From Minisyncoccota bacterium (lineage in GTDB: Bacteria; Patescibacteriota; Microgenomatia; UBA1400; UBA12028): 64,000 bases of DNA. The position numbers were made by a program, and so were the translations under genes. The notes beneath the pieces were generated by a model. That model worked only from the letters and a program-made list of their open reading frames with translations. It ran no database searches and was not told where the DNA came from. Shown here piece by piece: positions 17,494 to 50,423 of the stretch. Numbering within the stretch: position 1 is the first letter of the stretch; every line of letters starts with the position of its first letter. The DNA lies in contig DNEP01000006.1 in assembly GCA_003487265.1 (NCBI GenBank), positions 3,276 through 67,275 of the forward strand, written 5' to 3'.

Positions 17494-17550
17494 GTGGATT
17501 GTGCATATGTTTCTCTTTTATGGGGAAACTGTGAACAATGTCTGGTGCGC

Positions 17551-17599: not shown

Positions 17600-17729
17600 A
17601 TATTTTTTCTGTTTCGCACACGAAAAATGTACGAACTATTCGAGGGCGTTTTCAAACCATTTCACTTTTCCACACTACTACAAATACCTACTACTTCTTT
17701 CTTTATCTATTATTAGATACAATGCCACC

Positions 17730-20720: not shown

Positions 20721-20760
20721 AATGTCATCTTAGCAGGTTCGTGTGATATCTCGCAATGAA

Positions 20761-21456
20761 TTAGCGCGATTGAACCACTGGACTTGTGTACGCCTTTGAA
20801 CTCTCCACAATTTGACCATCAGAAGATCCTGGATTGTAGATGGTGTAGAAAATATGAATAAGTTCTTGAGTGTTGAGTTGTTTAACAATAATTCCAATGC
20901 GCGCAAGTTGTGAAATAATGTGATCGCGTTTTGGTTCAAGATCGGTTTTTGCTTTTTCAATAAGTTGCGGAATGTTAATTTGTGATTCTTGCGTTGATTT
21001 TTGCTTTTTAAATGGAAAAGGTGATGTTGGAAGGATTGAAGAAAGGGTGCTCGATTGATATGAAATGACAAGATAGAATTTTTTATCCAAAATGTTTCGC
21101 TCTTTCACAAGTGTGGAAACAAACTCTCGATACTGCGCGATTTGCGCGCGTTTTTGTGGGGCGTGTGTTCCACGCTCGGTTTCTTGAAGATGTCCCAAAT
21201 AACCCGAGATGTCTTTTTTTTGTGATCGAATGACAATTTGTATTGGAAAAGAAAGAGAATTGAGAATTCCCGCGTATGTGTAAATCATCGCTTCTTGTTC
21301 TTCTTCAGAGAGAAGATCAAAGTTAACCGATGATGCCGACATCACCATACTTGCCGTGCCATCACGAAGTAAAACGAGATTGTTCGTAATATCTAAAACA
21401 TCAAGAAATTCTTGCGTTGTTGATGAAAGGTGGTTGGAGGATGAGTGGGCGCTCAT
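20761..21456 (-). CDS. Hypothetical soluble protein immediately upstream of the VirB4-like gene
   Basis: 231 aa with no TM segment and no recognisable motif. It is co-oriented and tightly spaced with its neighbours. Confidence 0.35.
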   Translation of the reverse strand: MSAHSSSNHLSSTTQEFLDVLDITNNLVLLRDGTASMVMSASSVNFDLLSEEEQEAMIYTYAGILNSLSFPIQIVIRSQKKDISGYLGHLQETERGTHAPQKRAQIAQYREFVSTLVKERNILDKKFYLVISYQSSTLSSILPTSPFPFKKQKSTQESQINIPQLIEKAKTDLEPKRDHIISQLARIGIIVKQLNTQELIHIFYTIYNPGSSDGQIVESSKAYTSPVVQSR

Positions 21457-21465
21457 AGTGGTAGT

Positions 21466-22515
21466 TTAGGAGGTTTTCGCGAGAAATTCTAGCGGAGGAA
21501 TAATGGTGTTATTTGTAGTGAGTGTGTAGTTGTTAAATTCGAGGCCGTTTTTTTCTGTGCGAATACTAAAAGCTCCATTTTGTAGGGGGGATGTAATAAA
21601 GAATTGTCCTAATTTGTTCGTTTTGACTGCGCGCACCGCGATGCCCGTTTGATCAACAATTTCCACAATTGCCCCATCAACAATTTTACGATTTTGGTCG
21701 AGTACCATTCCAACAACAACGTTTGGTTGTTTTGGAGTTGATGGGAAGGGGAGACTACTATTTGTTTTCACCGCGATTTCCTGTTGGGTGGTAGTTTTAA
21801 TCACATTTTGTGCAAATGTGTGCAGCGTTTGTGTTGTTTCACCACGTTCTTCTTGTTGTTTTGATTTGTTTTGTGCCGCCTCAAATACGGTGACTTTTCC
21901 CGAAGGTTTAAGGAGGACTGATGAGGGTTGATGTGATTGTTTTTCAGCCGTAGATTGTTGGGTGGTAATAGGTTGGGTTGCTGGAGGAATAACGCGTTGT
22001 ATTTGTGCATGAGGCTTGGATTGTTGTAATGTGATAGGCGTTTTGTTGTTATGAAACAGTTGTGTGATGTTTTTTGAGTTCACAAAAAGATCATTTGGCT
22101 CAGACTGTGTTGAAATGGACTCAAAATACGCGCGAACTCGTTCGGAGCGTCCGATTTTTTGGTCGAGAAGGGGTTGCGATCGATCTCCTAATTTTTGTTG
22201 AATATACGCGAACGCATCTGGAATGCGGATTGTTTTTTTCCAGTAAAATTTTGTTGGTTTGTATATCGCGTGTAGGAACGCAACAACCCATTGATCTAGG
22301 GGGCGTTCTTCGAGCGGAACAAACGCAAACGCCGCTCCTGTGCCAATAATGATAAACACGAGAAAGAGTTTGAGTATGTTTGGAAGCGCGATCGAGTACA
22401 CGAGGAGCGCAACACCAACCGATCCAAGTAACTCGAAGAATTGCTTGAGCGTCATGTTTCCAATGAGGTGAAACTCGTACGCAGTGATATTCTGCGGGAC
22501 AGGATGCTCGATCAT
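21466..22515 (-). CDS. PrgI/VirB3-like membrane protein fused to a C-terminal beta-sandwich (carboxypeptidase-regulatory-like) domain
   Basis: The N-terminus 'EFHLIGNMTLKQFFELLGSVGVALLVY...FVFIIIGTGAAFAFVPLEERPLDQWVVAFL' matches the PrgI-family pattern: a two-TM hairpin ending in 'P-x-x-x-RPLDEW'. The C-terminal 'VVGMVLDQNRKIVDGAIVEIVD...FSIRTEKNGLEF' looks like a CarboxypepD_reg/Cna-B-type fold. Confidence 0.5.
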   Translation of the reverse strand: MIEHPVPQNITAYEFHLIGNMTLKQFFELLGSVGVALLVYSIALPNILKLFLVFIIIGTGAAFAFVPLEERPLDQWVVAFLHAIYKPTKFYWKKTIRIPDAFAYIQQKLGDRSQPLLDQKIGRSERVRAYFESISTQSEPNDLFVNSKNITQLFHNNKTPITLQQSKPHAQIQRVIPPATQPITTQQSTAEKQSHQPSSVLLKPSGKVTVFEAAQNKSKQQEERGETTQTLHTFAQNVIKTTTQQEIAVKTNSSLPFPSTPKQPNVVVGMVLDQNRKIVDGAIVEIVDQTGIAVRAVKTNKLGQFFITSPLQNGAFSIRTEKNGLEFNNYTLTTNNTIIPPLEFLAKTS

Positions 22516-22580: not shown

Positions 22581-23594
22581 TTATTCTGTTTGGATTGCGG
22601 AGGTCATCACCTCAATGGTTGCGGAATTTCCTTCGGCGTCCATTGCTGTTCCTGAAAAAATAGCGAAAGGCATAATGGTGTTTGTTGATGGAATCGTTTG
22701 ATATTCAATGCGCATTGTAAAAAGTTTTGAGGATCGCAATTCTTTTGGGGTGAGTAGTTTTCCGGAAATCTGGTATGAAAGAAGGGAGTATTCCCCATTC
22801 TTCATTGAAGAAATCATCTCTGGAATTGAACGCACATTTGCATGACCGCCATCAACTGGTTGATATGCGACGTTGTGAATGAATATTTTTCGAACATATC
22901 CTTGCGAATCAACAAGAACGGTTGCTGGGTTGTTTGTTGTTCCTGTATGAGAAAACGAATATCCTGAAAAGGAAAGAGAAAAAGGAATAGAAAAATAGGT
23001 TGCCTGCTCTTCGATTGTTTGGGTGAGTTCACTTTCCCCCTTCAAAAATTGAATATTGGAAAGTTGTGGCGCGAGCTCTAATGTTGGAGAAAAGAGCGCG
23101 AGCGCCTCTTTTGCCAGAAGAATCGCTTCTTCTGTGCGCACGGTTTGCATTTCGGTTTGTGGTGGAATATTTCCCGTATACCGTATGGTATTTGTTTCAC
23201 TGTCATAAAAAAGGGAATACCCAAATTCTTTTTGTGTCCACAATGATGTTGATGAGCTTTTTTCCATATTCCACGCTATTGCGAGTTCTTGTAGTTTTGT
23301 GAGTGAAATGGGGGGGAGACTGTTTTGGTTTTGATAAATAGGGAGCGTTTTTGGAAGGGTTGGTGTTGGCCCAATGTATTCAAATGTTTGAATATTTTGT
23401 TCCTGTGTGAGTGTTGTTTGAATGCTGGGCTTTTCGGGAACAACGATTGGGGGTTCACTGGGGAGTGGTTGCCTGTTTTGTAACAGGGTGAGAATGAGTT
23501 GTAAAACAAAAACGAGGATTGTTGCGAGAATAATGAATGTAATAAACCATCGTTTCACCGGAATTTGTTTTTTTATTTGGATGTTTGTATTCAT
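22581..23594 (-). CDS. Bitopic membrane protein (candidate VirB8/PrgL-like component)
   Basis: Single N-terminal TM 'WFITFIILATILVFVLQLILTLL' followed by a ~300-aa extracytoplasmic region. I chose the start at the MNTNIQ codon, which leaves a 4-nt overlap with the upstream gene. Confidence 0.35.
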   Translation of the reverse strand: MNTNIQIKKQIPVKRWFITFIILATILVFVLQLILTLLQNRQPLPSEPPIVVPEKPSIQTTLTQEQNIQTFEYIGPTPTLPKTLPIYQNQNSLPPISLTKLQELAIAWNMEKSSSTSLWTQKEFGYSLFYDSETNTIRYTGNIPPQTEMQTVRTEEAILLAKEALALFSPTLELAPQLSNIQFLKGESELTQTIEEQATYFSIPFSLSFSGYSFSHTGTTNNPATVLVDSQGYVRKIFIHNVAYQPVDGGHANVRSIPEMISSMKNGEYSLLSYQISGKLLTPKELRSSKLFTMRIEYQTIPSTNTIMPFAIFSGTAMDAEGNSATIEVMTSAIQTE

Positions 23595-26440
23595 TCTTCC
23601 TCCTGTTGTGCGCCTTCGGTGTTTTGCGATGCGTCGGGGGAACAAGAAGATGTGACATAATCATTTATCGCAACGTCCGGATCGGGAACGGCCTCAAGAA
23701 TATTGATCCCTAAGGCTTCATAATGAAGGTGATTCCCGGTGGAATTTCCAGTTGAATCGGTTTTTCCAATAAGATCTCCAACTTGTATAGACATGGAACT
23801 GTTTTCTGGCATTCCAGCGAAGTTTAAAAGGTGGGCAAAAATAAACACAAGACCGTCGTCGGAAAGGAGAACGACATGCTTTCCATATCCTGGGTCAAGT
23901 CCATTACCCTCTGCATAAAACAGCGCTTTACCAGAAAATGGGGCGTACACAGGTTCATCTGCTCCAAGCACAATGTCGAGCGCAGATCCAGGCCCAGAAA
24001 CATATTCTCCAGATATGTTTGGAATTGAGGATGTGTACACGGCGTGGGGATCTCCGTTAGTGTAGAATTCCCCCAACTGCGTAACTGTTCCACTTACAGG
24101 CCAGCATCCCACACTTGCAACCCCTTGACCGTGAAGTGTTGAGGTGGGGTCAAGCATCATAATATCCGACTGATTTGCGGTGTTTGCGGTAAAAATACGA
24201 ACCGCGATTAACGCCGGAATGGTGATTGCCATTCCAGATGATGCTGAAAAGATAGGTGATTTGCTTGCAATCGAAGCGCCGACCGAACCCAACCCACTTG
24301 CTCCACCCATCGCCCCCTGTCCTCCAACCGCTCCTGCAACTTTTGAGCCACCCGCAACTCCCGCACTCGTCGCTCCCCCTCCTCCGCCCCCTCCACCCAA
24401 AAATGACATGAGTTTCATTGCCCCCATAGCCATTGCGAGCAAACCACTTGCTATAAGTGCAAGCAAACTCAGCAAGATTTTTACAAGCTTTCCCAATCGG
24501 GAAACAGTGTTGAGAAGAAAATCTTCTGTGGCCTCTCCAACAATGGGAATTTTTCTTAACAACTCAGCATATTTAAACGTCTGGTCTAGCGCGGGAATTG
24601 CCCCCGCTCCCCCAGGGATAAAAGTGAGTGCGGTGGTAAGTGCTTTTTTTCCAAGTTCATAATCCGCTTCGTTAAATTCTCTATTTTGCGCTGTGCTTTC
24701 TCCAGAAATTGCAGGAAGCGCGCCAAACGAATCTGGTTCAGAATAAAAGAAATCAAAATCTTTACCAAAAAACTCACCAGCCGATTCAAGAGAAGTTGAA
24801 CCATGATAATACGCGAGAAAACGCTGCCTTTGTTCTTCGGTGGCCGTTGCCCACGCGTGTTGGGTGCCCAAAATTTTCCCCATTTTATACTTGAGTGCAC
24901 GTTGTGCAGAGGAGAATTCTCGACGTTCCCTCTCATTTTCTTCTGCTTGTAGTTTTGCTTGATTTTCAAGTGCATCTCTTCGAATGTACATTCCGCGAGA
25001 CACAATGCGATATCCCTGAAGAAAAACATCTTCCTCAAGTCCTTTGAGTGAGTTTTGATCGAGTGGGAGTGGAGAATGTACTGCGTTATTGTGTGTGTCA
25101 CGCGCAACACTGTTTCGCACGAGTCGAATATATGCGCTAAATGACTCTGCCCAATCTGTATCATAAATGGTGTGCAAGAAGGGGAGAATGCGCGACCGTT
25201 CTTCGTCGGTTAATAAATCTTCAAAAATTCTCTCAAATTGTTTTATGTTAATCGTGTCGATGGTGTGTCCAGAGATTGCCAAGGTTTGGAGTCGAACCAT
25301 AATTCTACGAATGTCGGACTCGGGAATGTTTGCTTTTTGCAAAAGTTGTTCAAGTTGTTCCTCCATAAAAGCTGTTGACGCTTGAGTGGTCCACCCAGCT
25401 TTTTCGAGTTTTTTCTGATCGATGTTTTGAAGAACTTTGCCCGCAGTTTCATCTTCAATAATTGCTTTTACAAGATCCTCAATCTTGGGAGGTTCAACGT
25501 TATTTTTTGCAAGCGAGGTGAGCTGTGTTTTGAGCGACAGTTGAAAATGTGCATCAAGTGAGAGTCGCTGCAAACATTGGATGTACAGTTTTTGCCGTCC
25601 GTCAAACGAGGTGAGCGTGCGAATCAAATCTTCACCGGTGAGTTGTGATAACTCAAATAAAACTATATTTGAGGTTGCGGGAAGGAGGTCGCTGATAAAC
25701 TTTTCGCGTTCTTGATCGTCGGTTATGCCGTATGAAATCGCTAGTCGTGCAAGAAGTGACTGTCGAACGAGGGTAACCTGATTCCGAAGCTCTCTGTCGG
25801 ACTTTAAGATGTCTGTTAACGAAAGATTTTGTTTTTCTTCTTCTTTTTCTCGCTTTTCTTCTTCTTTTTTGTCTTTCTCTTGCATTGCGGGGATCGCAAT
25901 CCCAGCGGATCTCGGTTGATCGCCTGCCGCCACAGGTTGTTCCCCAACCGCCGCCTTTTCTTCTTCGGTTTGTGGCGATCGCAATTCTTCTTCTGATAAA
26001 TCATGCGCTTCCCGCGCAATTTCAATAAGCGTTTCAGCCTCGCGCAACTGTGTGAGAAGATCTGAAAGTTTTTGATCGGGAGAGAGGCGACGTTCTATAC
26101 TGTATTCTTCAAAAATTTCATGCCCGAACAAATCATGATCGACTTTTTTTGGAATAATATAACGAATGGTGAGAATGAGCACCCAAAGTTGATTAAATGA
26201 CAACCTTCCCAGCGTTTGATCGTCGGGGTGATCAATCATCTCGCGAAGCATTGCTTTGTATCCACCGGAGGTTTGAATGCGGGATAAAACGCCCAACGAA
26301 CGATCCGCGAGATCATATGATCGCTTCATGTAGTCGCGCAACGCATACGCGACCTTACTTATGTTTTCATCTTGAAGGTGTTCGCGGGTAAAAAATGATC
26401 GAATTGGCGCGCTATCCAGCATACGCGTATTGTACCGCAT
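23591..26440 (-). CDS. Large membrane protein with a C-terminal M23 (LytM) peptidase domain
   Basis: 949 aa. The C-terminus 'GYGKHVVLLSDDGLVFIFAHLLNF...IGKTDSTGNSTGNHLHYE' matches the M23 zinc-site H-x-x-x-D ... H-x-H arrangement. A poly-Gly/Ala segment ('GGGGGGGGATSAGVAGG...') is flanked by two TM helices. The N-terminal ~600 aa are helical with a KE-rich coiled coil. Confidence 0.65.
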   Translation of the reverse strand: MRYNTRMLDSAPIRSFFTREHLQDENISKVAYALRDYMKRSYDLADRSLGVLSRIQTSGGYKAMLREMIDHPDDQTLGRLSFNQLWVLILTIRYIIPKKVDHDLFGHEIFEEYSIERRLSPDQKLSDLLTQLREAETLIEIAREAHDLSEEELRSPQTEEEKAAVGEQPVAAGDQPRSAGIAIPAMQEKDKKEEEKREKEEEKQNLSLTDILKSDRELRNQVTLVRQSLLARLAISYGITDDQEREKFISDLLPATSNIVLFELSQLTGEDLIRTLTSFDGRQKLYIQCLQRLSLDAHFQLSLKTQLTSLAKNNVEPPKIEDLVKAIIEDETAGKVLQNIDQKKLEKAGWTTQASTAFMEEQLEQLLQKANIPESDIRRIMVRLQTLAISGHTIDTINIKQFERIFEDLLTDEERSRILPFLHTIYDTDWAESFSAYIRLVRNSVARDTHNNAVHSPLPLDQNSLKGLEEDVFLQGYRIVSRGMYIRRDALENQAKLQAEENERERREFSSAQRALKYKMGKILGTQHAWATATEEQRQRFLAYYHGSTSLESAGEFFGKDFDFFYSEPDSFGALPAISGESTAQNREFNEADYELGKKALTTALTFIPGGAGAIPALDQTFKYAELLRKIPIVGEATEDFLLNTVSRLGKLVKILLSLLALIASGLLAMAMGAMKLMSFLGGGGGGGGATSAGVAGGSKVAGAVGGQGAMGGASGLGSVGASIASKSPIFSASSGMAITIPALIAVRIFTANTANQSDIMMLDPTSTLHGQGVASVGCWPVSGTVTQLGEFYTNGDPHAVYTSSIPNISGEYVSGPGSALDIVLGADEPVYAPFSGKALFYAEGNGLDPGYGKHVVLLSDDGLVFIFAHLLNFAGMPENSSMSIQVGDLIGKTDSTGNSTGNHLHYEALGINILEAVPDPDVAINDYVTSSCSPDASQNTEGAQQEEE

Positions 26441-33898: not shown

Positions 33899-35548
33899 CT
33901 ATTTCAGATCTTCAATTGGAATATCTGCGTAGCCCTCTGGGAATGAAGTTTGTGGTGCGTCAGTGTATGTATTTTCAACTCCAGAGCTTGTCTTCGATTG
34001 AAGATTCTTTTCCTGTAATCCTTTATAAACGCGAGTTCCATACTTCCCACCTCCCATAAACACACCATCTTTCATCCATCCTGGGGTGGACTTCACAAAC
34101 TTCGTTCCACCTGCCAGACCGCCGGCGCCGGGGATTCTGCTCCATTCCATGCCGGGAATAATCTTGTCGCCTTCCCAACCTTTAGTCAAATTCTTCTGAA
34201 TTTCTGGGATGTATTTTTCAAAGAAGCCTTCTTTGGCTCCGGACATTTCCTTTGCGATCTTGATGGAGGAGGGGAGCATCATGAGAATTCCGAGTGCGAT
34301 CAGCGCTTGGGTGGCTCGCACGGCCTCCTGTGTGGAGGCGTTTCTTCCATCTGAAATCAGTGGGGGCATAAATCCACCAGATGTTGATTGATATCCGATA
34401 TCGCCTTTTCCAAATCCTCCAAGTGTCATCGCGAGTAACAGCATCACGAGTACGACGGGGAATGGGAGAAGGCGACCGATCATATTCTTGATCCACTGCA
34501 TAAACCCACCCCCTTGCTCGAGAAGCGTGTTCAGCGCAAGCTCGATTGGTGAAAAAATCAAAGAAACAAGAAAACCAACATACGACTTTACCAGTTCAAA
34601 CCACGTTTGAATGACAACAAACAGCAACGCAATGGAAAGGACAACATTCATCAAAATATTTGAGGTGAGCGAAAGCGCAGAAGAAAACCATTTAATCACT
34701 TCTGGCCCAGAAAGGACGCCGTCGACCATATCACCAACGCCGCTACCAATTGTTTGAATCATGGATCCGTTTGTGCCGCCACCATTCCATACCGCTCCCC
34801 AACCGATTGCGAAGATGCTTTGCGAAAATGCGATCTCGGTTAAGGAGACTTCGACTCCGCCGATTTTTGGATTGTTCATCAAACCAGAAAAGATTCCAAC
34901 AAATAAGTACATCGTCACGTACATCAAATCAACAATTAATCCGGCAATGGCGTAGGAAAAAGTTACAATGATCAAGCTGACAACAACGCGCGGGATTGCG
35001 GTTGCAACGGTCATCACGGCTTGGCCGCCGAGTTTTTGGCGGAAAATAATCGCAAACCCAATCACCACAAAAAATAATGCATAAAATCCGTATGCGACGT
35101 TCAAAAATGTTTTCCAGATTGGAAGAATGGGGGTGAGACTCGCAAAACCAACGCCTCCCACACTTTGTGCGTACGCGGGAGGTGCAAACTTTGAGTGTTG
35201 CGCTAAATCTTGAACGTATTGGCCAACGCCCGCGGGGGGAGTGCGATACATAAACGCAATTGCCCGACCAAATCCAGAAATCGCGCTGTCCTTTGATCCA
35301 CCAGTCGTGTTTGCAATTGAGGCCATATCAAGTAAGAATCCGGTTTTACGCCAACACTCCATAGAAAGGGAGCCTGTTTGCTGACAATGATCATATGCAG
35401 ACTCAGCTGAGTCCATCGTGGGAAAATTGTATTTTTCATCTTCTTGTGCGTATGTTGTTGGAACAGAAACAATAAGTGACAGGAGAATGCCCGAAAAAAA
35501 GATCGCTCCCATTGTAAACACACTAATAAATCGGCGCATACTCACCAT
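33899..35548 (-). CDS. Polytopic membrane protein, VirB6/TrbL-like candidate
   Basis: 549 aa. A signal-peptide-like N-terminus is followed by a periplasmic segment and then 6 or more TM helices rich in G/A/I/L/V ('VMTVATAIPRVVVSLIIVTFSYAIAGLIVDLMYV...'). This is the VirB6/TrbL-type topology. Confidence 0.45.
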   Translation of the reverse strand: MVSMRRFISVFTMGAIFFSGILLSLIVSVPTTYAQEDEKYNFPTMDSAESAYDHCQQTGSLSMECWRKTGFLLDMASIANTTGGSKDSAISGFGRAIAFMYRTPPAGVGQYVQDLAQHSKFAPPAYAQSVGGVGFASLTPILPIWKTFLNVAYGFYALFFVVIGFAIIFRQKLGGQAVMTVATAIPRVVVSLIIVTFSYAIAGLIVDLMYVTMYLFVGIFSGLMNNPKIGGVEVSLTEIAFSQSIFAIGWGAVWNGGGTNGSMIQTIGSGVGDMVDGVLSGPEVIKWFSSALSLTSNILMNVVLSIALLFVVIQTWFELVKSYVGFLVSLIFSPIELALNTLLEQGGGFMQWIKNMIGRLLPFPVVLVMLLLAMTLGGFGKGDIGYQSTSGGFMPPLISDGRNASTQEAVRATQALIALGILMMLPSSIKIAKEMSGAKEGFFEKYIPEIQKNLTKGWEGDKIIPGMEWSRIPGAGGLAGGTKFVKSTPGWMKDGVFMGGGKYGTRVYKGLQEKNLQSKTSSGVENTYTDAPQTSFPEGYADIPIEDLK

Positions 35549-35627: not shown

Positions 35628-38228
35628 ATGCGCACGCGAGGTATTTTGTTGATGATTGTCTCTTCGAGTTTTCTTGTTGTAATGGCGTTTTTTCGTCTTT
35701 CTTTTCCATATTCCGCGCATGCGGTGGTCGAAAAATCCATTCCGTTTATTTTTCCTGGGCCCGATGATGCGTTTTTGAACTGTTCTGGTGATAAAGAAGA
35801 ATGTTTTCGAGAGTCCGCCTCACAGTACATTATGACGTGCTCTCCAGAAATCAAGTTGCAGGCGCAGGTTGATCCTGAAAAAATCAATGAACCTATTATG
35901 ATTGACGGAACAGCAACAACACTTGCGGAATATTGTGGAACTGATCCAGAAAATGCAAACTGCGTGTTCAATCCCGTAAGTGGATCGGTGACAAGTCTTG
36001 TACCGAAGTCCGCGAATACCTCACTGTATCGCACAACACAATCTTCGGGGAAGGTACTGAAGGGGAGAACGGAAAGTCTGGAAGGTTTTTTGGCGGGAGA
36101 TGCGGATCCCGAAACGATATTTGATGCAGGTCCATCAAGAAAAATCCAAACCGTGCAACAAAACTGTTCACAGAGTATTCGCTATCTTCTTGCGGTTGAA
36201 TCACTTTGCCGAGAAGAAACGCAGCAAGGCGAGTTTTCCCCAGGGTTCCAGACGCAAAGCGTTATTGATCAATTTTTGAATCAATTTAGTCAGCAGTTCC
36301 AAGGGTGTTCACTTAACGAAAAGATTGGAGATACTTCGTACGCTGAGTTGTTGAGCGCTGTTCGAGAGCGAGCCGGCGGTGAAGGAAAAGAGGAGTTGTA
36401 TTGTCGTTTACCCGAATACCTCGATCCCGACTCTGCGGCAAATAATGACTTGGGAAAGAAGCAGGAATACATTGATAGAGCAAGCAAAATAGACAGTCTG
36501 CGCCCAATCTTGGATCGCGCGTTTTCAAAAGGATACTTGGCAATCGCCAATCAAAAAGGAACGGTGTATTCGGTGATTCCCGTGCTAATTCCTTCGAGTT
36601 TGGGATTGTATGAACAAAACTTTCCCGTGCTTTCTGGTTCAAACAATGTCGGGTTTAATGGACCGCTTCGACAATTAATGAGTATGTATATTACTCAAAG
36701 TCAACTGATGGCGATGCAAGACCAACAAAATCTTGCACAAGAAAAGATTGCGCAAACCATGCGTGCAATCGACAATGAACAACTTGATATAAGTGCGTCT
36801 CCGTACATTGATCCAAATTTTTGTTCAAATCCAAGTACCGACGCGCAAAAAATCGCGTGCCTTTTTGCAGACCGCATAAATGCTGGAATTGCCAACAATG
36901 AGTTTGAAGGACCGGATGGAAATACAACCTGTACATTTTCACCTACAAAAGCCGATGCGGAAACAGCAAAAAAACTGTATTCATCTACGAAGCCGAACTT
37001 TTTAACCACACTGTTTTCCTTTTTTTCACCACCCGATGAATCGTTTTCTGGCACACCTGTTGTATCGCAACCTCAGGTACAAAATGATTCCTCAATTCGT
37101 TCGTTTTTGCTTGTTCCATGCGCCGATTTTTGTTTGATTCGATATACAGAAAAAGCTTTGTTTGGTGCGATGGCGGACACAAACTATGCTTCAAACATCG
37201 AACAACACATCAAAGAAGGAAACTATAAAAGCAATGGCTTTTTGCGATTGTCTGGCATTGCTCCAAAGATCACCTCGTACGTATCCGAAAAAACTTTTCC
37301 TTCTGTTTCTGGATCTCCTGTAACAATTTCTGCGGAGATTGTGCCAACAGGAGACGCAAATCCGTTGATGTTTGGAGGATGGCTTGCTCAGTTGTTTTAT
37401 CTTTACACCGCGGGAGTGACCGCGGATGTAGATTCGCCAGCAAGAGCAGAAACATATCCCACACTTGAAACATACTGGACATCATTCAAAAGCGAATCAT
37501 CGCAGTCAACGGGGACATTTGAGTATTGTTCAGATTACAAAGATCCGAATGATGAAAATGCGTGGATCACTGTTGACGTTCCCACGATCCCAGAAATTAA
37601 ACAGCTCGCCTGTTCCACTGCAGAAAAATACAACGTTCCCGCCTCGATGCTTTGGGGAATATTTCAAATTGAGTCGGGATATGACAACACAAATGTGAGT
37701 TATATCAATATTGCATCGCGCCTCGATCCTGATGTAACAACCTACGCGTGTTCTTTGCAAACAGATGGAAGTTTTAAGCCATTAAATCTCATGGTCAACG
37801 ATTGTCGTGTGAATCTTCCCGAGTTTTTTCCAGATGCGAATCCTCCGCTTTCGGCGCTCCCCGCAAATGGCGAGTCAGAGTTTGTTCGGGGAAGAAATGT
37901 GTGCGAAATCGAAGTAGCGTTCGATGTGATTGCGCAAAGTCTTGCGACCTACAGTAAGGCGAAAACTTTCCAATATCCCGCAGGATCAGCGAAAGCGGGA
38001 ACGCCAAATTGGTACTGGTTGGCTGGTCAGTTTGGTGTTGGCGGAATTATTCAAGAATTTAAACAACAAGAAGAACCATACAAATGCGCCATCCCCGAAG
38101 GTGGTCCGTATGAAAAATGGGCGCATGTAAGCGGGTGTTATGAAAATCAACAAACGCTTTCTGGGGCAAATGTCGATTACTGTACTTGTTTAGTTGAAAA
38201 CTTCCCATTGGATTGTTCAAGTTTATAA
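35628..38228 (+). CDS. Secreted Cys-rich 866-aa protein with a lysozyme-like (SLT-type) motif
   Basis: N-terminal signal peptide 'ILLMIVSSSFLVVMAFFRLSFPYSAHA' and more than 25 Cys residues. The segment 'ASMLWGIFQIESGYDNTNVS' resembles the catalytic E-S block of lytic transglycosylases; this assignment is weak. Confidence 0.4.
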   Translation: MRTRGILLMIVSSSFLVVMAFFRLSFPYSAHAVVEKSIPFIFPGPDDAFLNCSGDKEECFRESASQYIMTCSPEIKLQAQVDPEKINEPIMIDGTATTLAEYCGTDPENANCVFNPVSGSVTSLVPKSANTSLYRTTQSSGKVLKGRTESLEGFLAGDADPETIFDAGPSRKIQTVQQNCSQSIRYLLAVESLCREETQQGEFSPGFQTQSVIDQFLNQFSQQFQGCSLNEKIGDTSYAELLSAVRERAGGEGKEELYCRLPEYLDPDSAANNDLGKKQEYIDRASKIDSLRPILDRAFSKGYLAIANQKGTVYSVIPVLIPSSLGLYEQNFPVLSGSNNVGFNGPLRQLMSMYITQSQLMAMQDQQNLAQEKIAQTMRAIDNEQLDISASPYIDPNFCSNPSTDAQKIACLFADRINAGIANNEFEGPDGNTTCTFSPTKADAETAKKLYSSTKPNFLTTLFSFFSPPDESFSGTPVVSQPQVQNDSSIRSFLLVPCADFCLIRYTEKALFGAMADTNYASNIEQHIKEGNYKSNGFLRLSGIAPKITSYVSEKTFPSVSGSPVTISAEIVPTGDANPLMFGGWLAQLFYLYTAGVTADVDSPARAETYPTLETYWTSFKSESSQSTGTFEYCSDYKDPNDENAWITVDVPTIPEIKQLACSTAEKYNVPASMLWGIFQIESGYDNTNVSYINIASRLDPDVTTYACSLQTDGSFKPLNLMVNDCRVNLPEFFPDANPPLSALPANGESEFVRGRNVCEIEVAFDVIAQSLATYSKAKTFQYPAGSAKAGTPNWYWLAGQFGVGGIIQEFKQQEEPYKCAIPEGGPYEKWAHVSGCYENQQTLSGANVDYCTCLVENFPLDCSSL

Positions 38229-38255: not shown

Positions 38256-38696
38256 TTACGGTTGATAAATAGTGAACTGCATGATCGAGGTGACGCCGGT
38301 AAAGTTCGACAAAAACAGCATAATCAACCACGAAGAAATGGCAACCAAAATTCCCAGTAGTGCGAAAGAAAGCGTTTTCTTTCCCGCCTCGGTCATTTTT
38401 GGGTTTCCCCCGCTAAGTAAAAAGGTGAATGCGCCAACAATTAACATAACAAATGATGATAATCCGACTGCCGTGACCGCAATGTTTAATACATTTCGCA
38501 CCACACATTCTAGTCCAGAAAGCGTGGGAATTTCGTATGTTGCTGGGCCGTTTCCTAAATCCATGGTGACTTGTTGAACGCAGCCTTTGGAGGCATTCCA
38601 TTCATTGAGCTTTGTCTGAGCGGAAATTGTTGCGGGTGTTACAAAAGAAACGGAACACAGAACGACGAACGCAATACACGAGGTGAGCAATTTCAT
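38256..38696 (-). CDS. Small two-TM membrane protein, paralog 1 of 7 (putative T4SS-type pilin family)
   Basis: Signal peptide, then a hydrophobic helix, the loop 'LSGGNPKMTEAGKK', and a second helix. This is the same architecture and loop motif as the six downstream paralogs. Confidence 0.5.
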   Translation of the reverse strand: MKLLTSCIAFVVLCSVSFVTPATISAQTKLNEWNASKGCVQQVTMDLGNGPATYEIPTLSGLECVVRNVLNIAVTAVGLSSFVMLIVGAFTFLLSGGNPKMTEAGKKTLSFALLGILVAISSWLIMLFLSNFTGVTSIMQFTIYQP

Positions 38697-38785
38697 ATGT
38701 GTAGTTTAACATACGAACGACCGCTTCTGCATTCGCAGAGATTCGCAAGATGTTTACTAAACCGATTCGAGTACCAATTTGAGTA

Positions 38786-38815
38786 CAAAAAGGCCCCGTT
38801 TTTCAAGCGGGGCCA
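38786..38815 (-). terminator. Rho-independent terminator after the paralog array
   Basis: On the minus strand the GC hairpin GGCCCCGC-(loop)-GCGGGGCC is followed by a T-run. It lies directly after the stop of the 38847-39188 gene. Confidence 0.6.
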
Positions 38816-38846
38816 AGGTTTTCAAAATGTATGAAGTGAGTGTGTA

Positions 38847-39188
38847 TTAGAACGGTCGTTTGATCTGATCGCCGAGGTGAAACACATCAATTCCAAAGAA
38901 GTACGCGACAACTTGCATGAGCGCATATGAAGATGCAACGATTGCGAGTCCGACCAAGGAAGCGGTGATTTTGTTTCGAGCGCTTTCGGTCTTGCTCTTG
39001 TCGCCACCGGACATAATCCACTCAATACCGCCAATAACAAGATATGCGAACACCAAAACAGCCGAGATTAACAAGGCCAAATTGAGAACACTTGTAAAAA
39101 GCAACCCAATATCCGTGATTTTTACGTTTCCATCATTGACTGGGTCAATGGTAATAGTTGGCTTTGCTTGTGCGAGAAGTGCGAGCAT
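38847..39188 (-). CDS. Small two-TM membrane protein, paralog 2
   Basis: '...VIGGIEWIMSGGDKSKTESARNKITASLVGLAIV...FFGIDVFHL' fits the shared family motif. Confidence 0.5.
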   Translation of the reverse strand: MLALLAQAKPTITIDPVNDGNVKITDIGLLFTSVLNLALLISAVLVFAYLVIGGIEWIMSGGDKSKTESARNKITASLVGLAIVASSYALMQVVAYFFGIDVFHLGDQIKRPF

Positions 39189-39270
39189 GTATTCCTCCTT
39201 AGACTATGTGTGCATTTTACCTTGTTTACGTGTTCGGTGCAAGCGGGCGGTGTTTCCCGCGGTTTCGCAT

Positions 39271-39669
39271 TTACAGTACGTAATATTTGTCTTTATCCCA
39301 ATCAACAGGTTTTAGTTGGTCTTGTTTAAGCGGTGTTTTCTCGTTTCCATCCTTTATTTTTTCTAAATTGACGATATTGAGTCCAAAATACCATTGAATA
39401 ATTGCAAAAATGGCGTACGCAGATGCGGTAACCGTGAGCCCAATAATGGCATTGGTGATCATTTGTTTTGCGCTGTCGAGCTTTCCTTTGTCTCCTCCTG
39501 CAAGAACCCACTGTAATCCACCGAAGACTAAATAGAAAAATGTTGCAATACCTGCAATTAACAACAGCGTTCCTGTTGCGGATCCAACGTACTTCCCCAA
39601 GTCAAAAATATTCACAACGGACCCTTCAACTTGCAGGCCTCCTAAAATATCAAGTCGTTGTGTGATCAT
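39271..39669 (-). CDS. Small two-TM membrane protein, paralog 3
   Basis: '...VFGGLQWVLAGGDKGKLDSAKQMITNAIIGLTV...YFGLNIVNL'. Confidence 0.5.
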   Translation of the reverse strand: MITQRLDILGGLQVEGSVVNIFDLGKYVGSATGTLLLIAGIATFFYLVFGGLQWVLAGGDKGKLDSAKQMITNAIIGLTVTASAYAIFAIIQWYFGLNIVNLEKIKDGNEKTPLKQDQLKPVDWDKDKYYVL

Positions 39670-39672
39670 ATC

Positions 39673-40029
39673 TTATTTCCCCAACAATCTTGGAAATACA
39701 GGTTGAAGTAGGCTTAATCCAAAGACGCTTTCCACAAACAACGCGATCGCTGCGACACCCGCCAACACCCCAAAACCGACGATGGACTGCATGATCATTG
39801 TCTTTGCGGAATCAATTTTCCCCTTGTCGCCTGCGGCACTCGTCCATTCCCACCCCGCGCGAAGCAAGTTAACAAGAACCATGATTCCACCAAGAACGAC
39901 CAGCGTTTGCCACAACACCGCAATATATGTGGTGAGTACAAGCGCAGAACTCGCAGTATCCTTCACCGTTTGAAGTTTTGTGGGAAGAACAGGATTTGTG
40001 ATCGCTGCTAAAAGCGTTGTGTTCATCAG
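39673..40029 (-). CDS. Small two-TM membrane protein, paralog 4
   Basis: '...LLRAGWEWTSAAGDKGKIDSAKTMIMQSIVGFGV...VFGLSLLQPV'. I moved the start to the second Met to give a 4-nt overlap with paralog 5. Confidence 0.5.
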   Translation of the reverse strand: MMNTTLLAAITNPVLPTKLQTVKDTASSALVLTTYIAVLWQTLVVLGGIMVLVNLLRAGWEWTSAAGDKGKIDSAKTMIMQSIVGFGVLAGVAAIALFVESVFGLSLLQPVFPRLLGK

Positions 40030-40424
40030 CATCCTCCCCAAATATTGTTCAAGATGAGGATGGGATTCAAGATATCTATTCCAAGAACCCCACCGACAAT
40101 CCCAATGATCGCCTGCGAAACAATCACGACCACAAGTCCAATCGCCCCGTTAATCATTGATTGTTTTGCTGTGTCGATCTTCCCTTTTTCGCCATTCGCG
40201 GTAATCCACGTGAGTCCCGCGAACACCATGTACACCAAGAACATAAGTCCGCCAAGTGCAGTGAAAAATCCAAGAAAAACAGAGATGAGTGTTTCAAGTG
40301 GTCCAGTTGCAACTGCAGAACAATCGCCACTGAAATTTGGGCTCAATTTTTCACTTGCGCTTTTCACAAATCCAGAGAGAGGATTTGTGCTTGCTTCTAG
40401 TGCTAGTAACTTCTGTAACATCAT
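40026..40424 (-). CDS. Small two-TM membrane protein, paralog 5
   Basis: '...VFAGLTWITANGEKGKIDTAKQSMINGAIGLVV...VLGIDILNPI'. Confidence 0.5.
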   Translation of the reverse strand: MMLQKLLALEASTNPLSGFVKSASEKLSPNFSGDCSAVATGPLETLISVFLGFFTALGGLMFLVYMVFAGLTWITANGEKGKIDTAKQSMINGAIGLVVVIVSQAIIGIVGGVLGIDILNPILILNNIWGGC

Positions 40425-40431
40425 TGTTTCC

Positions 40432-40770
40432 TTATGGCGTGACTAGTTTTGGATTGAGGAAGTACGTGGCGTTTCCAAACAACACCCATCCAATAATACC
40501 CATGATAATCGGTGCAGAGACTAACAACAACAACCCCAATATGCTCATGTTGAATTTTTGCATCACTTTTTCGTGTGTTTTTGTATCACCGTTCGAGGTG
40601 ATGTACTGAAATCCTGCGAATACAATGTTAAACAATGCGATTAAGCCACCTACGACTGAAACAAAGACCATCATATTATTGATGAATAGAATGATCTGTC
40701 CACTTGTCCCATAACCGTCTAACGGTGAAGGTTGTGTGATTGTTCCAAAAAATCCATATAGCATAGTCAT
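40432..40770 (-). CDS. Small two-TM membrane protein, paralog 6
   Basis: '...VFAGFQYITSNGDTKTHEKVMQKFNMSILGLLL...LFGNATYFLNP'. Confidence 0.5.
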   Translation of the reverse strand: MTMLYGFFGTITQPSPLDGYGTSGQIILFINNMMVFVSVVGGLIALFNIVFAGFQYITSNGDTKTHEKVMQKFNMSILGLLLLVSAPIIMGIIGWVLFGNATYFLNPKLVTP

Positions 40771-40779
40771 ATTGTACCA

Positions 40780-41127
40780 TTAGATCGCTGGGTTAAGGAT
40801 GTCAAATCCTGCACCGAAGAATACGAGTGACAAGATCTGAACAATCCAATACGCCCCGATTACAAGGAGAAATCCAATAAGCGCGGTTTGAATCGTTTTT
40901 GACCCTTTTTCGAGTCCTTTTGGATCACCTCCAGATGCGACAATGGTGATTCCACCAAACACAAGCATAACAAAGATGATTAACCCACCAAACAGAAAAA
41001 TGTTTGGTAAAAACACATTGATAATGCTCGCGGGATTGGGAAATTTTGAGTCAATAGTTGCCCCAGTATTCGAGTTTAAGATGAGTTCTTGTTTGAAATC
41101 AACGACGGCAAGCAACGATCTGGACAT
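40780..41127 (-). CDS. Small two-TM membrane protein, paralog 7
   Basis: '...VFGGITIVASGGDPKGLEKGSKTIQTALIGFLL...FFGAGFDILNP'. Confidence 0.5.
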   Translation of the reverse strand: MSRSLLAVVDFKQELILNSNTGATIDSKFPNPASIINVFLPNIFLFGGLIIFVMLVFGGITIVASGGDPKGLEKGSKTIQTALIGFLLVIGAYWIVQILSLVFFGAGFDILNPAI

Positions 41128-41146: not shown

Positions 41147-41536
41147 TCAGAAAATCTGAGGGGGTTGCGTGCTTGTTTGTGTTTCTGCCGAGCCCGATGC
41201 CTGTTGCGCCGTTGAAGGCGAGGGTTTTGGGGTTGGGCTCCCCTGCGTTGCAACGTCGAGTGCGATCGGAAAAGATGACAACTCGTCTTGTGTGTATTGA
41301 CGGCGTTGATCAACATCGCGAATCGTGTTTTTGTCAATTGTGTCAGGTAATTTTTTTGTTTGTTCTTGAATTTCGGCAGGAAGGGTATATTTTTTTGCGT
41401 TTATCGACAGAGACACCGCGATCCACAGAATAACGGTGATGATACCAATAATGCCAATCATGGCGTATTCTCGACTATGCGTTACATATGCCAAGAAAGA
41501 TTGATCTTTTGGAGAGCGTATTTTTTGCGATGTCAT
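41147..41536 (-). CDS. Bitopic membrane protein with a P/S/T/Q-rich C-terminal tail
   Basis: 129 aa with one TM 'IGIIGIITVILWIAVSLSI'. It sits between the PilO-like gene and the paralog array and overlaps the PilO-like stop by 4 nt. Confidence 0.4.
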   Translation of the reverse strand: MTSQKIRSPKDQSFLAYVTHSREYAMIGIIGIITVILWIAVSLSINAKKYTLPAEIQEQTKKLPDTIDKNTIRDVDQRRQYTQDELSSFPIALDVATQGSPTPKPSPSTAQQASGSAETQTSTQPPQIF

Positions 41537-42282
41537 AGTTCAACCTCGTCTTGTTTTTTCTTGATGGTTTTTTCAACTGGTTGCCCAACAAAAAACGCGT
41601 GTACTTCTAACGACGCATTTTGAATGCTCACCTCATCTGCGTTTTTTAGCGTTGCGATGGATACAGATTGGACCTTCATCATGCGATCGGCCTTTTCCAC
41701 TGCTTGAATAAACGATCGGATTTGGGGATAGGTCGCGAGAAGGCGGACCTGAATAACCGCGGAATGAATTTCCCCATTTTTTTCTGGGGCGGGGAGATTT
41801 TCTGGAATGGATGCCATTTGAATAGATGAAAGGCGGATTCCTTGATCGGAACCAATGCGTTCAATCCGTTTTACCACCTCTTCGATCTCGGGAGTGTTTG
41901 GAATGGTGCGATGGAGGTTGTTGATTTGCGCTTTTAATGGCGGAAGTTCGGTTGAAAATGAAGAAAGTACCGAGATTTTTTCTGACAACAACTGTGTTGT
42001 TTTTTGTCGATCCTCGATTTGTTTGAGGAGATCGGACATGGTGAGAAGCGTGGGGCGAATTGCAAGCGTTGCGAGTAAAACAATAGACAGCACCGTCGCG
42101 GTAAGTTCAAGTGTTGTGCGCGAAGAAGACTGGTTTACGAGTCGTTGTGCGGTTTGCTCCGCAATACGCCGAAGGTCGTAAAACGTTGCCTTCGCTTGTT
42201 TTTTTGGGCCAAACGATTGCGGTTGAGGTGCAGAAAATTGAGAAGGAGAGGTTGAGCCGACTGTTTGTGGTGCGTCTGTCAT
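41533..42282 (-). CDS. PilO-like pilus-assembly protein
   Basis: 249 aa. Cytoplasmic N-terminus, single TM 'LELTATVLSIVLLATLAI', a coiled-coil, then a ~120-aa C-terminal domain. This is the PilO/PilN-type bitopic architecture. It overlaps the PilN-like stop. Confidence 0.45.
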   Translation of the reverse strand: MTDAPQTVGSTSPSQFSAPQPQSFGPKKQAKATFYDLRRIAEQTAQRLVNQSSSRTTLELTATVLSIVLLATLAIRPTLLTMSDLLKQIEDRQKTTQLLSEKISVLSSFSTELPPLKAQINNLHRTIPNTPEIEEVVKRIERIGSDQGIRLSSIQMASIPENLPAPEKNGEIHSAVIQVRLLATYPQIRSFIQAVEKADRMMKVQSVSIATLKNADEVSIQNASLEVHAFFVGQPVEKTIKKKQDEVEL

Positions 42283-42824
42283 GATTTTACCTCGAAAGAA
42301 AGAATGAACTGATATCCCATCTCTTTTTCATCATCGTTTCGAACTTGGGAAACCGAAAGTTTTTCAATTTGCGGTGATTTTTGAAGTGTGGTGACAAGAA
42401 GCGCAATATCATCTGCTGAGTTTGCAATTCCCGCAATTTGAAGTTGGGCGCCTTTTTGTTGAATAGTTTTCAGATATACGTTGCGAGGTATCTTTGAACT
42501 CACAACGTCAAGAGCGCGAACAATAGAACCTTGCTTTTCTGTTTGAGAAAGAAATGTTGTTTTTTGTTGGATTGCGCGAACATCCTGCTCCATTGTTCCG
42601 TAGGAGGAGACAATCGCCGATTTTTGGACGAGGGTTGCGTTAAGATCGGTGAGATCTCGGTCGAGCTTGAATCGAGAAGCGATACTCAAGATAACGATAA
42701 ACTCGGTGAAGATGATGAGATGTTTCCCAACCGCAGAAGACCAACTCAGCAAACGACCTACGGGCGTGTCAAGAAAAGGATCTTTTGGAAGTAAGTTGAT
42801 GGATTGGACAGGTTTTGTATTCAT
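42279..42824 (-). CDS. PilN-like pilus-assembly protein
   Basis: The N-terminal 'SINLLPKD' matches the hallmark PilN 'INLLP' motif. It is followed by a TM 'LIIFTEFIVILSIASRF' and a periplasmic domain. I chose the start at the MNTKPVQ codon. Confidence 0.5.
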   Translation of the reverse strand: MNTKPVQSINLLPKDPFLDTPVGRLLSWSSAVGKHLIIFTEFIVILSIASRFKLDRDLTDLNATLVQKSAIVSSYGTMEQDVRAIQQKTTFLSQTEKQGSIVRALDVVSSKIPRNVYLKTIQQKGAQLQIAGIANSADDIALLVTTLQKSPQIEKLSVSQVRNDDEKEMGYQFILSFEVKS

Positions 42825-42895
42825 CGCTCCTCGGCAGGAAGGGTACATGGCGACCATGTATTTATGTATGATACTATATCTCAAAAGATTCTGCT

Positions 42896-43507
42896 ATGAA
42901 CTTCACCCCCCAATTTCAAGAAGAACGTCAAAAAGAGCGCGTGTTTGTTCACGATCTTCGATCTGGGGATGTGCGCGCGGTTGAGGAATGGTATCGCCTG
43001 TATAAACAAAAAATGTTGCGATATGTGAATCAAAAAATCGGCGATTCTCGTGACGCCGAGGAAGTCATGCATGATATTTTCCTTTCCTGTTTAGAAAGTC
43101 TCCCTCTTTTCCATGGTCAGTCGATGCTTTGGACGTGGATGTGCGCAATCGCGCGACACGAGATTGCCGATTATTTTCGCAAAAAATACGCAAAAAAATT
43201 GATCAAATCGATTCCACTTATTGATGCGATTTTACCTCTTGTGGGATCACGTTCGGGGGAAGATACACAAAGCACAACCGAGGAAATCCAACTCGCGCTT
43301 CGGGAGTTGTCGGATCGCGATCGCGAGATTTTGCTTATGAAGTACATTGATAAACTGCACGTGAGTGAAATCGCGAGAAAGTTTGGTGTGAGTCTGAAAA
43401 GCATGGAGTCCTCACTTTTTCGAGCGAGAAAATTATTTCGATCGTTATACGAACGCTCCTGTCGCAATGCGACCGAGGCGGTATTCATGGAAAACACAAA
43501 CGCGTGA
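42896..43507 (+). CDS. ECF-type RNA polymerase sigma-70 factor
   Basis: Region 2 is 'DAEEVMHDIFLSCL' and region 4 is the helix-turn-helix 'KLHVSEIARKFGVSLKSMESSLFRARKLF'. The gene is divergent from the PilN-like gene. Confidence 0.75.
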   Translation: MNFTPQFQEERQKERVFVHDLRSGDVRAVEEWYRLYKQKMLRYVNQKIGDSRDAEEVMHDIFLSCLESLPLFHGQSMLWTWMCAIARHEIADYFRKKYAKKLIKSIPLIDAILPLVGSRSGEDTQSTTEEIQLALRELSDRDREILLMKYIDKLHVSEIARKFGVSLKSMESSLFRARKLFRSLYERSCRNATEAVFMENTNA

Positions 43508-45772: not shown

Positions 45773-46471
45773 ATGAACAAACCAATAGATCATATCGCGA
45801 TCATTATGGACGGAAATCGTCGGTGGGCACGCGCACATTCTCTTCCCGAAGTTGCGGGGCACGAGTTTGTGGTGAATCATGTGATTGAGGAGCTCGTTGA
45901 TGAATGTGTAGCGCAACATATTCCATATCTTACATTGTGGGCATTTAGCACAGAAAACTGGAATCGGTCAACACTCGAGGTAAATGCGGTGCTTAATCTT
46001 TTTCGCAAAGCATTTGAAAAAAATGTTCAAGATCTACACAAAAAAGGTGTGCGATTGCTGATGATTGGAGATTTGTCGCGTTTTCCCGAGGATATTCAAA
46101 AAAATGTCGCGCGATGGATTGAAATGTCGAAAGATAATACAAAAATTACGCTGATTATCGCGCTGAATTACGGTGGTCGTGATGAAATTGTTCGTGCGAT
46201 GAAAAAACTTTCTGTTGAGAACTTTCCACCCGAAAAACTGCGCGAAATATCAACCGATTCATTTGGGGAATTCCTCGACACCGCGGGAGTTCCCGATCCC
46301 GATCTCATCATTCGCCCAGGGGGTGAAAAGCGCCTGTCTGGGTTTATGCTTTGGCAAAGTGCGTACGCGGAGTTGTATTTTTCTGATTTGATGATGCCCG
46401 AGTTTCGCACCGAGGCGTTGCGAGATGCAGTTCAAGACTATGGGGAACGTAAGCGGCGTTTTGGAAAATAA
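45773..46471 (+). CDS. uppS: Undecaprenyl-diphosphate synthase (cis-prenyltransferase)
   Basis: 'HIAIIMDGNRRWA', 'LTLWAFSTENWNR' and the C-terminal 'RLSGFMLWQSAYAELYF' cover all UPPS signature blocks. Confidence 0.85.
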   Translation: MNKPIDHIAIIMDGNRRWARAHSLPEVAGHEFVVNHVIEELVDECVAQHIPYLTLWAFSTENWNRSTLEVNAVLNLFRKAFEKNVQDLHKKGVRLLMIGDLSRFPEDIQKNVARWIEMSKDNTKITLIIALNYGGRDEIVRAMKKLSVENFPPEKLREISTDSFGEFLDTAGVPDPDLIIRPGGEKRLSGFMLWQSAYAELYFSDLMMPEFRTEALRDAVQDYGERKRRFGK

Positions 46472-50333: not shown

Positions 50334-50423
50334 TGGCGGAAGGGGAGGGAATCGAACCCTCGTGGAGCTTGCGCCCCCAGCGGTTTTCAAGACCGAGCCG
50401 ATAGACCGCTCCGGCACCCTTCC
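50334..50423 (-). tRNA. tRNA-Ser (anticodon UGA)
   Basis: The reverse complement is GGAAGGGTGCCGGAGCGG...CTTGAAAACCG...GGGTTCGATTCCCTCCCCTTCCGCCA. It has a 7-bp acceptor stem, a long variable arm, discriminator G73, a TΨC arm, and the anticodon loop C-U-UGA-A-A. The CCA end is encoded. Confidence 0.8.

Follow-up and report, generated by a model that had tools for sequence, protein, structure and literature searches.

Tandem arrays of VirB2-like pilin genes have been described in Patescibacteria. In S. epibionticum the pilin series lies inside a type IV secretion system (T4SS) cluster and was reported to be essential (Wang 2023, PMC10633639). According to a survey based on the Pfam family PF18895, 441 VirB2 arrays of 2-11 genes occur in 383 assemblies, most abundantly in Microgenomatia and Saccharimonadia, with about 25% identity between the copies and with the T4SS often near dnaA; antigenic variation or host-range adaptation was suggested there for the array multiplicity (Quinonero-Coronel 2025, PMC12102498). 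A 2025 review describes the arrays as the only VirB2-like pilins in Gram-positive-type T4SSs (PMC12857230). Here we analysed seven genes of this kind in a stretch of 64,000 nt (the window) of contig DNEP01000006.1, positions 3,276 to 67,275, from a Minisyncoccota bacterium of the Microgenomatia (assembly GCA_003487265.1).

As far as the published arrays are described in these papers (S. epibionticum ML1 SEML1_0006-0019 and the 441 surveyed arrays), the locus does not differ from them in kind. It shares with them the PF18895 family in a tandem layout of at least two adjacent genes, strongly diverged copies and a monoderm-type T4SS near dnaA, with VirB4, PrgI, TrsD-like and VirB6-like genes nearby. 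No coupling protein or relaxase was found among the window's open reading frames (ORFs) scanned for families, namely those within 16-48 kb and the ten largest elsewhere. Three proteins encoded in the window have exact counterparts in Microgenomates group bacterium GW2011_GWF2_45_18, whose assembly (GCA_001001575.1) is included in the genome table of the survey. The phenomenon is already known and the genome already surveyed. What is added here is modest but testable: a positional orthology of seven gene types, a promoter-gene-terminator unit at position 6 and a conserved VirB6-like neighbour. Term searches of the published array papers found no mention of the orthology, of the position 6 unit or of conserved VirB6-like and extracytoplasmic function (ECF) sigma factor neighbours, and the word 'orthologous' is absent from the text of the survey. 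We consider it probable, at roughly 60%, that the seven genes encode the VirB2-like (PF18895) subunit set of a monoderm-type T4SS near a Patescibacteria replication origin, with type 6 as the major subunit and the others specialised.

Seven tandem genes of the T4SS_pilin family

The array comprises seven co-oriented ORFs on the minus strand (38256-41127) encoding proteins of 112-146 aa, numbered 1 to 7 in the direction of transcription (Table 1). The original prediction, made from the letters of the window without database searches, had described seven tandem paralogs of a small two-helix membrane protein at this place, and the ORFs are indeed present. When each copy was scored against a hidden Markov model (HMM) of the other six, 44-82 bits were obtained, compared to at most 14 bits for 1000 shuffles per protein. 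Pairwise identity averages 26% (range 17-38%), and the alignment of the seven spans the whole hairpin core. Since the leave-one-out scores far exceed those of the shuffles, the similarity is not compositional; it holds outside the hydrophobic segments, and the hydrophilic loop is the best-conserved stretch. The Pfam search that the original prediction had proposed places all seven in PF18895 (T4SS_pilin), the literature's VirB2-like family. It is the best match of every copy, with three scores at or above the gathering score of 26.6 bits (36.8, 33.1 and 26.6 bits) and four below it (25.0, 23.6, 21.3 and 15.7 bits), and it matched all 78 members of a family alignment of window genes and database relatives. 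By these profile scores the seven ORFs are confirmed as real paralogs of the T4SS_pilin family.

Weak HMM similarity across the whole hairpin was also detected to NF045849, the Mbov_0395-family pilin-like conjugal transfer protein of Mycoplasma integrative and conjugative elements, which is part of a monoderm system of the MPF_FATA type and has VirB4 encoded nearby. Positions 3, 6 and 7 scored 28.0, 16.4 and 16.2 bits, the E values of the latter two lying between 5e-3 and 6e-3. The Mycoplasma protein is encoded by a single gene and not by an array, and the 16-28 bits reached here lie below the cut-off of 40 bits; judged by these scores, the array proteins are related to NF045849 but are not members of it. 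Type IV pilins were considered as well and rejected, as the original prediction had done: the class III prepilin motif G/FTLIE is absent from all seven translations, none of the copies has a Pfam match to a type IV pilus pilin, and the proteins have two hydrophobic helices, not a single long one.

Hydropathy and alignment revealed in each copy two hydrophobic segments joined by a short basic loop. The AlphaFold2 (AF2) model of position 6 is a helix-loop-helix with helices at residues 26-59 and 64-98 and a predicted local distance difference test (pLDDT) score above 95 in the core. In the window, a Sec-like leader is found on position 7 only, the N-termini of positions 1-6 being short and without a hydrophobic leader; some position 6 orthologs in other genomes carry an N-terminal leader. 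The sequence motifs turned out less strict than described. The proposed SGGD(K/P)GK loop is a shared hydrophilic loop, but in the looser form (S/A)(G/N/A)G(D/E/N)(K/P/T)x(K/G/T/M) with a single invariant Gly, and the C-terminal G-x-D-I-L-N-P tail is exact in two of the seven copies and approximate in two to three more but absent from the last.

Position 1 starts 19 nt past the upstream 129-aa gene. The spacers measure 9 nt between positions 1 and 2, 7 nt between 2 and 3 and 3 nt between 4 and 5, and positions 3 and 4 overlap by 1 nt. The described packing of six copies with 4-10-nt spacers or overlaps thus applies to positions 1-5 but not to the sixth gene, which follows a gap of 82 nt. The start of position 4 is more likely ATG 40026 than TTG 40041 (39673-40041, 122 aa), because the ATG is preceded by a GGAGGA site and the resulting product exactly matches a 117-aa NCBI protein.

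Positional types and the position 6 unit

Family members were typed with seven type-specific HMMs in 80 loci, drawn from genomes that differ at species level and bear labels such as Woesebacteria, Collierbacteria, Pacebacteria, Blackburnbacteria and Microgenomates. Seven is the modal array length (41 of 80 loci), and the order of types is monotonic in 70 loci, the exceptions being low-margin calls at the first position. Positional orthology, junctions and promoters were evaluated in the 42 arrays made up of precisely seven contiguous members (294 proteins). The best cross-genome match was found at the same array position for 293 of these 294 proteins, and same-position similarity across genomes amounts to 74-129 bits, compared to 51 bits between positions within a genome. 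Seven-gene arrays are also present in a related genome, GW2011_GWC1_46_15, and on a 965-kb contig that is less closely related; in each of them window position i best matches position i for every i from 1 to 7. The closest available orthologs of the array proteins show 47-75% protein identity and are too distant for a dN/dS analysis, and between the seven copies, at 17-38% protein identity, synonymous sites are saturated. Each position has its own signature residues across the 42 arrays, and the N- and C-terminal parts are the least conserved among orthologs. Neither nucleotide repeats longer than 33 nt nor conversion tracts were detected among the window copies. Because of the same-position matches, the conserved order and the absence of repeats, the seven genes are, on this comparative evidence, ancient and order-fixed orthologous types and not recently diversified or recombining variants. 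The original prediction had named antigenic or functional diversification of a surface filament subunit, or a family of effector, immunity or adhesin modules. Antigenic or recent diversification is not supported by these data, functional diversification in the form of subunit specialisation fits them better, and nothing was found that points to effector, immunity or adhesin modules.

Many related genomes possess, 6-8 kb upstream of the array, one more position-1-like pilin gene that stands alone (2101-2454 in the related loci L001 and L002, for example). It is preceded by a gene for a 200-400-aa protein with a weak family match, and in L002 the pair lies between uppS and spoIID. The pair is missing from the window, where uppS (45773-46471) directly abuts spoIID (46512-48257).

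Position 6 is the most conserved member of the array, with a median identity of 54% compared to 35-46% for the others over 42 genomes; the window protein is 71% and 62% identical to two orthologs, the other positions 36-57%. Median spacers at the four junctions from 1-2 to 4-5 are 1.5-5 nt, versus 61.5 nt at junction 5-6 and 78.5 nt at junction 6-7. A terminator-like hairpin is present at junction 6-7 in 27 of the 42 arrays, in none at any other junction and in none after position 7, and its stems vary in sequence between genomes. A sigma-70-like promoter matching at least 10 of 12 positions within 100 nt was detected upstream of position 6 in 24 arrays, upstream of the other positions in 0-5 of 42 and in about 4% of shuffles. 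The window itself shows a weak promoter candidate in the gap before position 6 and, downstream of it, an AAGGAGG ribosome-binding site. The strong terminator predicted after the sixth copy can be read directly in the sequence (Table 1). An automatic promoter and terminator scan of the window region yielded nothing above chance; it missed the real terminator because its loop limit was 8 nt. These expression signals argue for position 6 being a separate high-expression unit with its own promoter, strong ribosome-binding site and terminator, and its product is probably the major structural subunit. Usable values for how abundant the individual pilins are relative to one another were not obtained from the TM7x transcriptome paper.

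Position 7, spaced apart from position 6, combines a putative Sec-type signal peptide with an N-terminal ectodomain. At least two Cys residues occur in this ectodomain in 30 of 42 genomes, and it is probably disulfide-bonded.

The surrounding T4SS locus

Table 1. Genes and signals of the array and its neighbourhood, with coordinates in the window.
Feature	Coordinates	Strand	Evidence and remarks
dnaA	16045-17493		family scan
dnaN	17538-18824		family scan
VirB4-family ATPase, 629 aa, convergent on dnaN	18831..20720	-	PF19044, PF12846, PF03135
TrsD/TraD-like protein, 231 aa, resembles VirB4 N-terminal domain	20761..21456	-	NF041427 E 1.2e-5; NF045975 E 2.1e-10
PrgI/VirB3-like protein	21466..22515	-	PF12666 E 2.4e-8
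949-aa protein with C-terminal M23 peptidase domain	23591..26440	-	PF01551 E 1.8e-12
549-aa polytopic membrane protein, VirB6-like, co-oriented with array	33899..35548	-	signal peptide and about 6 transmembrane segments
866-aa secreted Cys-rich protein, convergent on position 7	35628..38228	+	no Pfam or PDB match
Array position 7, T4SS_pilin-family, 146 aa	38256..38696	-	PF18895 26.6 bits, equal to cut-off; N-terminal hydrophobic segment 1-19
Intrinsic terminator, GGCCCCG-9 nt-CGGGGCC-TTTTT (7-bp GC stem, T5)	38787..38814	-	read in sequence after position 6
Array position 6, T4SS_pilin-family, 113 aa	38847..39188	-	PF18895 25.0 bits; most conserved paralog
Weak sigma-70-like promoter candidate, TTGCAC-17 nt-TAAAAT	39214..39242	-	8/12 match; in 82-nt gap before position 6
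Array position 5, T4SS_pilin-family, 132 aa, ends tightly packed block	39271..39669	-	PF18895 E 5.3e-5; identical to UX04_C0002G0034; positional orthology
Array position 4, T4SS_pilin-family, 117 aa from ATG	39673..40026	-	PF18895 best match E 0.016; leave-one-out HMM 65 bits
Array position 3, T4SS_pilin-family, 132 aa	40026..40424	-	PF18895 E 6e-8; NF045849 E 1.3e-6, below cut-off; positional orthology
Array position 2, T4SS_pilin-family, 112 aa	40432..40770	-	PF18895 E 4.3e-9, 36.8 bits, above gathering cut-off; positional orthology
Array position 1, T4SS_pilin-family, 115 aa	40780..41127	-	PF18895 best match E 2.9e-4; type-1 HMM 171 bits; position 1 orthologs in other genomes
129-aa single-pass membrane protein between PilO and array	41147..41536	-	no family match; 130-aa positional counterpart in L001/L002
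PilO-like protein, upstream of array, co-oriented	41533..42282	-	PF04350 E 6e-10
PilN-like protein, upstream of PilO	42279..42884	-	PF05137 E 1.3e-14; in 5 loci only
ECF-type sigma factor, divergent from array operon	42896..43507	+	Pfam Sigma70_r2/r4_2/ECF

In 13-14 other loci, VirB4 and PrgI genes are found at most 10 kb from the array. In the window, VirB4 appears as two genes (18831-21456, minus strand), the 231-aa TrsD-like protein being followed by the 629-aa ATPase; the stop codons of the ATPase gene and of the convergent dnaN are 7 nt apart. The 949-aa protein is, by its M23 domain, a candidate cell-wall hydrolase of the T4SS, and several large proteins without family assignment are encoded between its gene and the array.

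A distance of 2.7 kb separates the gene for the 549-aa membrane protein from the array. Sequence searches of Pfam, NCBIfam and the PDB with this protein gave no match, and none of 185 relatives has a Pfam annotation. When its AF2 model (pLDDT 74) was compared with the PDB by Foldseek, the five best and nine of the top eleven matches were to TrwI/VirB6 in the R388 stalk, with E values of 0.011-0.03 and probabilities of 0.94-1.0. A homolog was found downstream of the array, always co-oriented, in 47 of 60 loci. Together this provides moderate evidence for a divergent VirB6, and the protein may represent the 'missing' VirB6 that, according to the survey (PMC12102498), could not be found in Microgenomatia.

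Between this gene and the array, the 866-aa secreted protein contains a stretch, LWGIFQIESGYD ('WGIFQIESGYD'), that resembles the catalytic motif of soluble lytic transglycosylases. No profile confirmed the motif, and Pfam, NCBIfam and PDB sequence searches with the protein remained empty. Homologs occur at the same place in close relatives; the protein encoded there is large but very variable between genomes.

Upstream of the array, the arrangement of PilN, PilO and the 129-aa protein (41147-42884) is restricted to the window's nearest relatives, being present in 3 of the 64 loci that were informative. The window ORFs scanned contained no further type IV pilus gene (PilM, PilB, PilC or pilin). 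Elsewhere an ECF sigma factor gene adjoins position 1: a divergent homolog lies less than 400 nt from it in 30 of the 64 loci with enough upstream sequence. Judged from this placement, the sigma factor is a possible regulator of the array operon.

Several further features of the window were recorded. A cobalamin riboswitch match (RF00174, 28422-28570, minus strand) scored 37.5 bits compared to a gathering score of 31.5 (E 6.5e-6) and lies just upstream of a 641-aa ORF (26412-28337, minus strand) with a Cys-rich C-terminus and no family match; a B12 switch within a T4SS neighbourhood is an odd placement for a reduced genome. The 1169-aa soluble protein encoded at 30337-33846 (plus strand) has no family match and no homolog in the 80 related loci, and its gene lies in a stretch of markedly low G+C content (0.37 compared to about 0.44) within the T4SS neighbourhood; this cargo or effector gene, if it is one, may have been acquired recently or may evolve fast. 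A weak Baseplate_J-like domain (E 1.8e-5) was detected in an 806-aa ORF (61024-63444, minus strand), which may belong to the remnant of a phage-tail-like or contractile system. The tRNA at 50334-50423 (minus strand) was assigned to tRNA-Sec by Rfam (50338-50423, 53.8 bits) and to tRNA-Ser with a TGA anticodon by ARAGORN, tRNA-Ser being more plausible, and a full-length transfer-messenger RNA was found at 51601-51999 (minus strand).

Possible roles of the seven proteins

The array proteins resemble classical VirB2/TrbC/TraA proteins (PF04956), as known from the Agrobacterium T-pilus and the F-pilus, in their small size, two hydrophobic helices, short basic loop and linkage to VirB3/VirB4/VirB6-type genes. 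They differ in that most copies appear to lack a long cleaved signal peptide, that seven distinct types are present instead of one, that the host is monoderm and that there is no significant profile-profile similarity. The original prediction of a VirB2/TrbC-like hairpin is supported by the two-helix and basic-loop architecture, the T4SS_pilin family and the T4SS neighbourhood, but not by a significant profile-profile match. Matches to PF04956 were found in only 10 of the 78 relatives and remained below threshold. Fold searches with Foldseek returned only generic, non-specific helical hairpins, among them an archaeal conjugation/Ced pilin (Aeropyrum pernix pilus, PDB 8dfu) at rank 17 with template modelling (TM) scores of 0.52/0.66 and a non-significant E of 5.1. 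The label 'VirB2-like' rests on architecture, genomic context, weak HMM matches and published structure-based annotation; sequence homology to VirB2 is not demonstrable.

VirB2-type pili and the positive-inside rule allow an orientation to be proposed. Because of this rule, the basic GGDKGK-type loop should face the cytoplasm, and the lumen once assembled, with the variable N- and C-termini pointing outward. In the reading that we favour, each protein forms a helix-loop-helix membrane hairpin, and positions 1-5 form a translationally tight operon that is read through from PilN-PilO in the window's clade and begins beside the divergent ECF sigma factor gene outside it. Type 6 would be the abundant main subunit of a pilus-like or stalk-like polymer, and the low-abundance types would nucleate, cap or adapt this polymer. 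It would be assembled on the VirB6-like platform, powered by VirB4, and would serve contact or exchange with the host cell. A functional analogy, and only that, is offered by type II secretion and type IV pili with their minor and major pilins, for example GspH-I-J-K with GspG, in which several low-abundance paralogs encoded in a tight operon accompany one abundant, most-conserved subunit; these differ from the array in their unrelated fold and signal peptide and in the G/FTLIE motif, which the array proteins lack.

Several observations weigh against the favoured reading. Six of the seven copies appear to lack a canonical signal peptide, unlike classical VirB2/TraA. Comparison by hhalign with eight annotated VirB2/TrbC plasmid proteins, a narrow set of alphaproteobacterial mating-pair formation type MPF_T only, gave a probability of 1.7% (20% for the best single position), and a PDB sequence-profile search with the family alignment returned chance matches only (E about 1). 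The VirB6-like assignment rests on Foldseek E values of about 0.01 with low TM-scores, and the promoter match before gene 6 in the window itself reaches only 8 of 12 positions.

In the main rival explanation, the seven hairpins would be non-pilus subunits that form, together with the VirB6-like protein, a hetero-oligomeric channel or stalk spanning membrane or cell wall. The apparent lack of cleavable signal peptides in six of the seven and the absence of a sequence link to pilus-forming VirB2 would be in line with it, a defined complex would go well with seven fixed types, and Gram-positive-type T4SSs are described as lacking pili (PMC12102498, PMC12857230). Nevertheless, that one type has a strong promoter of its own and is followed by a terminator suggests a large excess of this type, which is typical of a polymer and not of a complex with fixed stoichiometry, and pili have been seen by microscopy on cells of the candidate phyla radiation (CPR), though usually attributed to type IV pili. 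We regard such a channel as rather unlikely. Antigenic or host-range variation, with seven interchangeable variants of one major pilin for switching or mixing surface types, is the idea offered by the survey; such variation has been put forward for VirB2 paralogs in Bartonella and Anaplasma (PMC12102498). Those clusters likewise comprise several tandem VirB2-type genes in the T4SS locus of a host-dependent bacterium, and the low identity among the seven copies and the weak conservation of their outward-facing termini would fit. The types of the array, however, are ancient and fixed in order, each with its own ortholog lineage, signature residues and expression layout. They resemble their counterparts in other genomes more than their neighbours, show no repeats to support gene conversion, and belong to a pilin series reported as essential in S. 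epibionticum (PMC10633639), so that this explanation appears very improbable.

That the genes encode unrelated small membrane proteins, holin-like or similar in composition only, which came to lie near T4SS genes by chance, would be compatible with the many weak matches that hydrophobic hairpins also give to unrelated membrane families and with the non-specific fold searches. Against it stand the similarity far above shuffles and centred on the hydrophilic loop, the PF18895 matches throughout the relatives, the lack of any holin or phage family match in a PHROGs scan, and the conserved linkage to the VirB6-like protein and to VirB4/PrgI. This explanation is effectively refuted.

A more specific form of the VirB2-like subunit set can be put forward only tentatively. 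Microgenomatia may possess a heteromeric VirB2-type pilus or stalk of seven non-redundant types, position 6 as the major and six minor ones, built in a defined way on a divergent VirB6 platform for host contact or uptake, with the array co-transcribed with orphan PilN/PilO in the window's clade; as a whole we hold this to be doubtful. If true, it would represent the first VirB2-class fibre with several kinds of subunit and also the first from a monoderm, and the co-transcription would hint at a functional link of a T4SS pilin set with alignment proteins of type IV pili.

The arrays are part of the one secretion apparatus shown to be essential to a cultivated CPR bacterium in its epibiotic life, and the additions made here bear on the construction of this T4SS. 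For these arrays, the findings shift the working model from a variable surface antigen to a defined multi-subunit machine. They also provide targets: position 6 for tagging and purification, positions 1-5 and 7 as putative tip or adaptor subunits and the 549-aa protein as the possible VirB6 platform.

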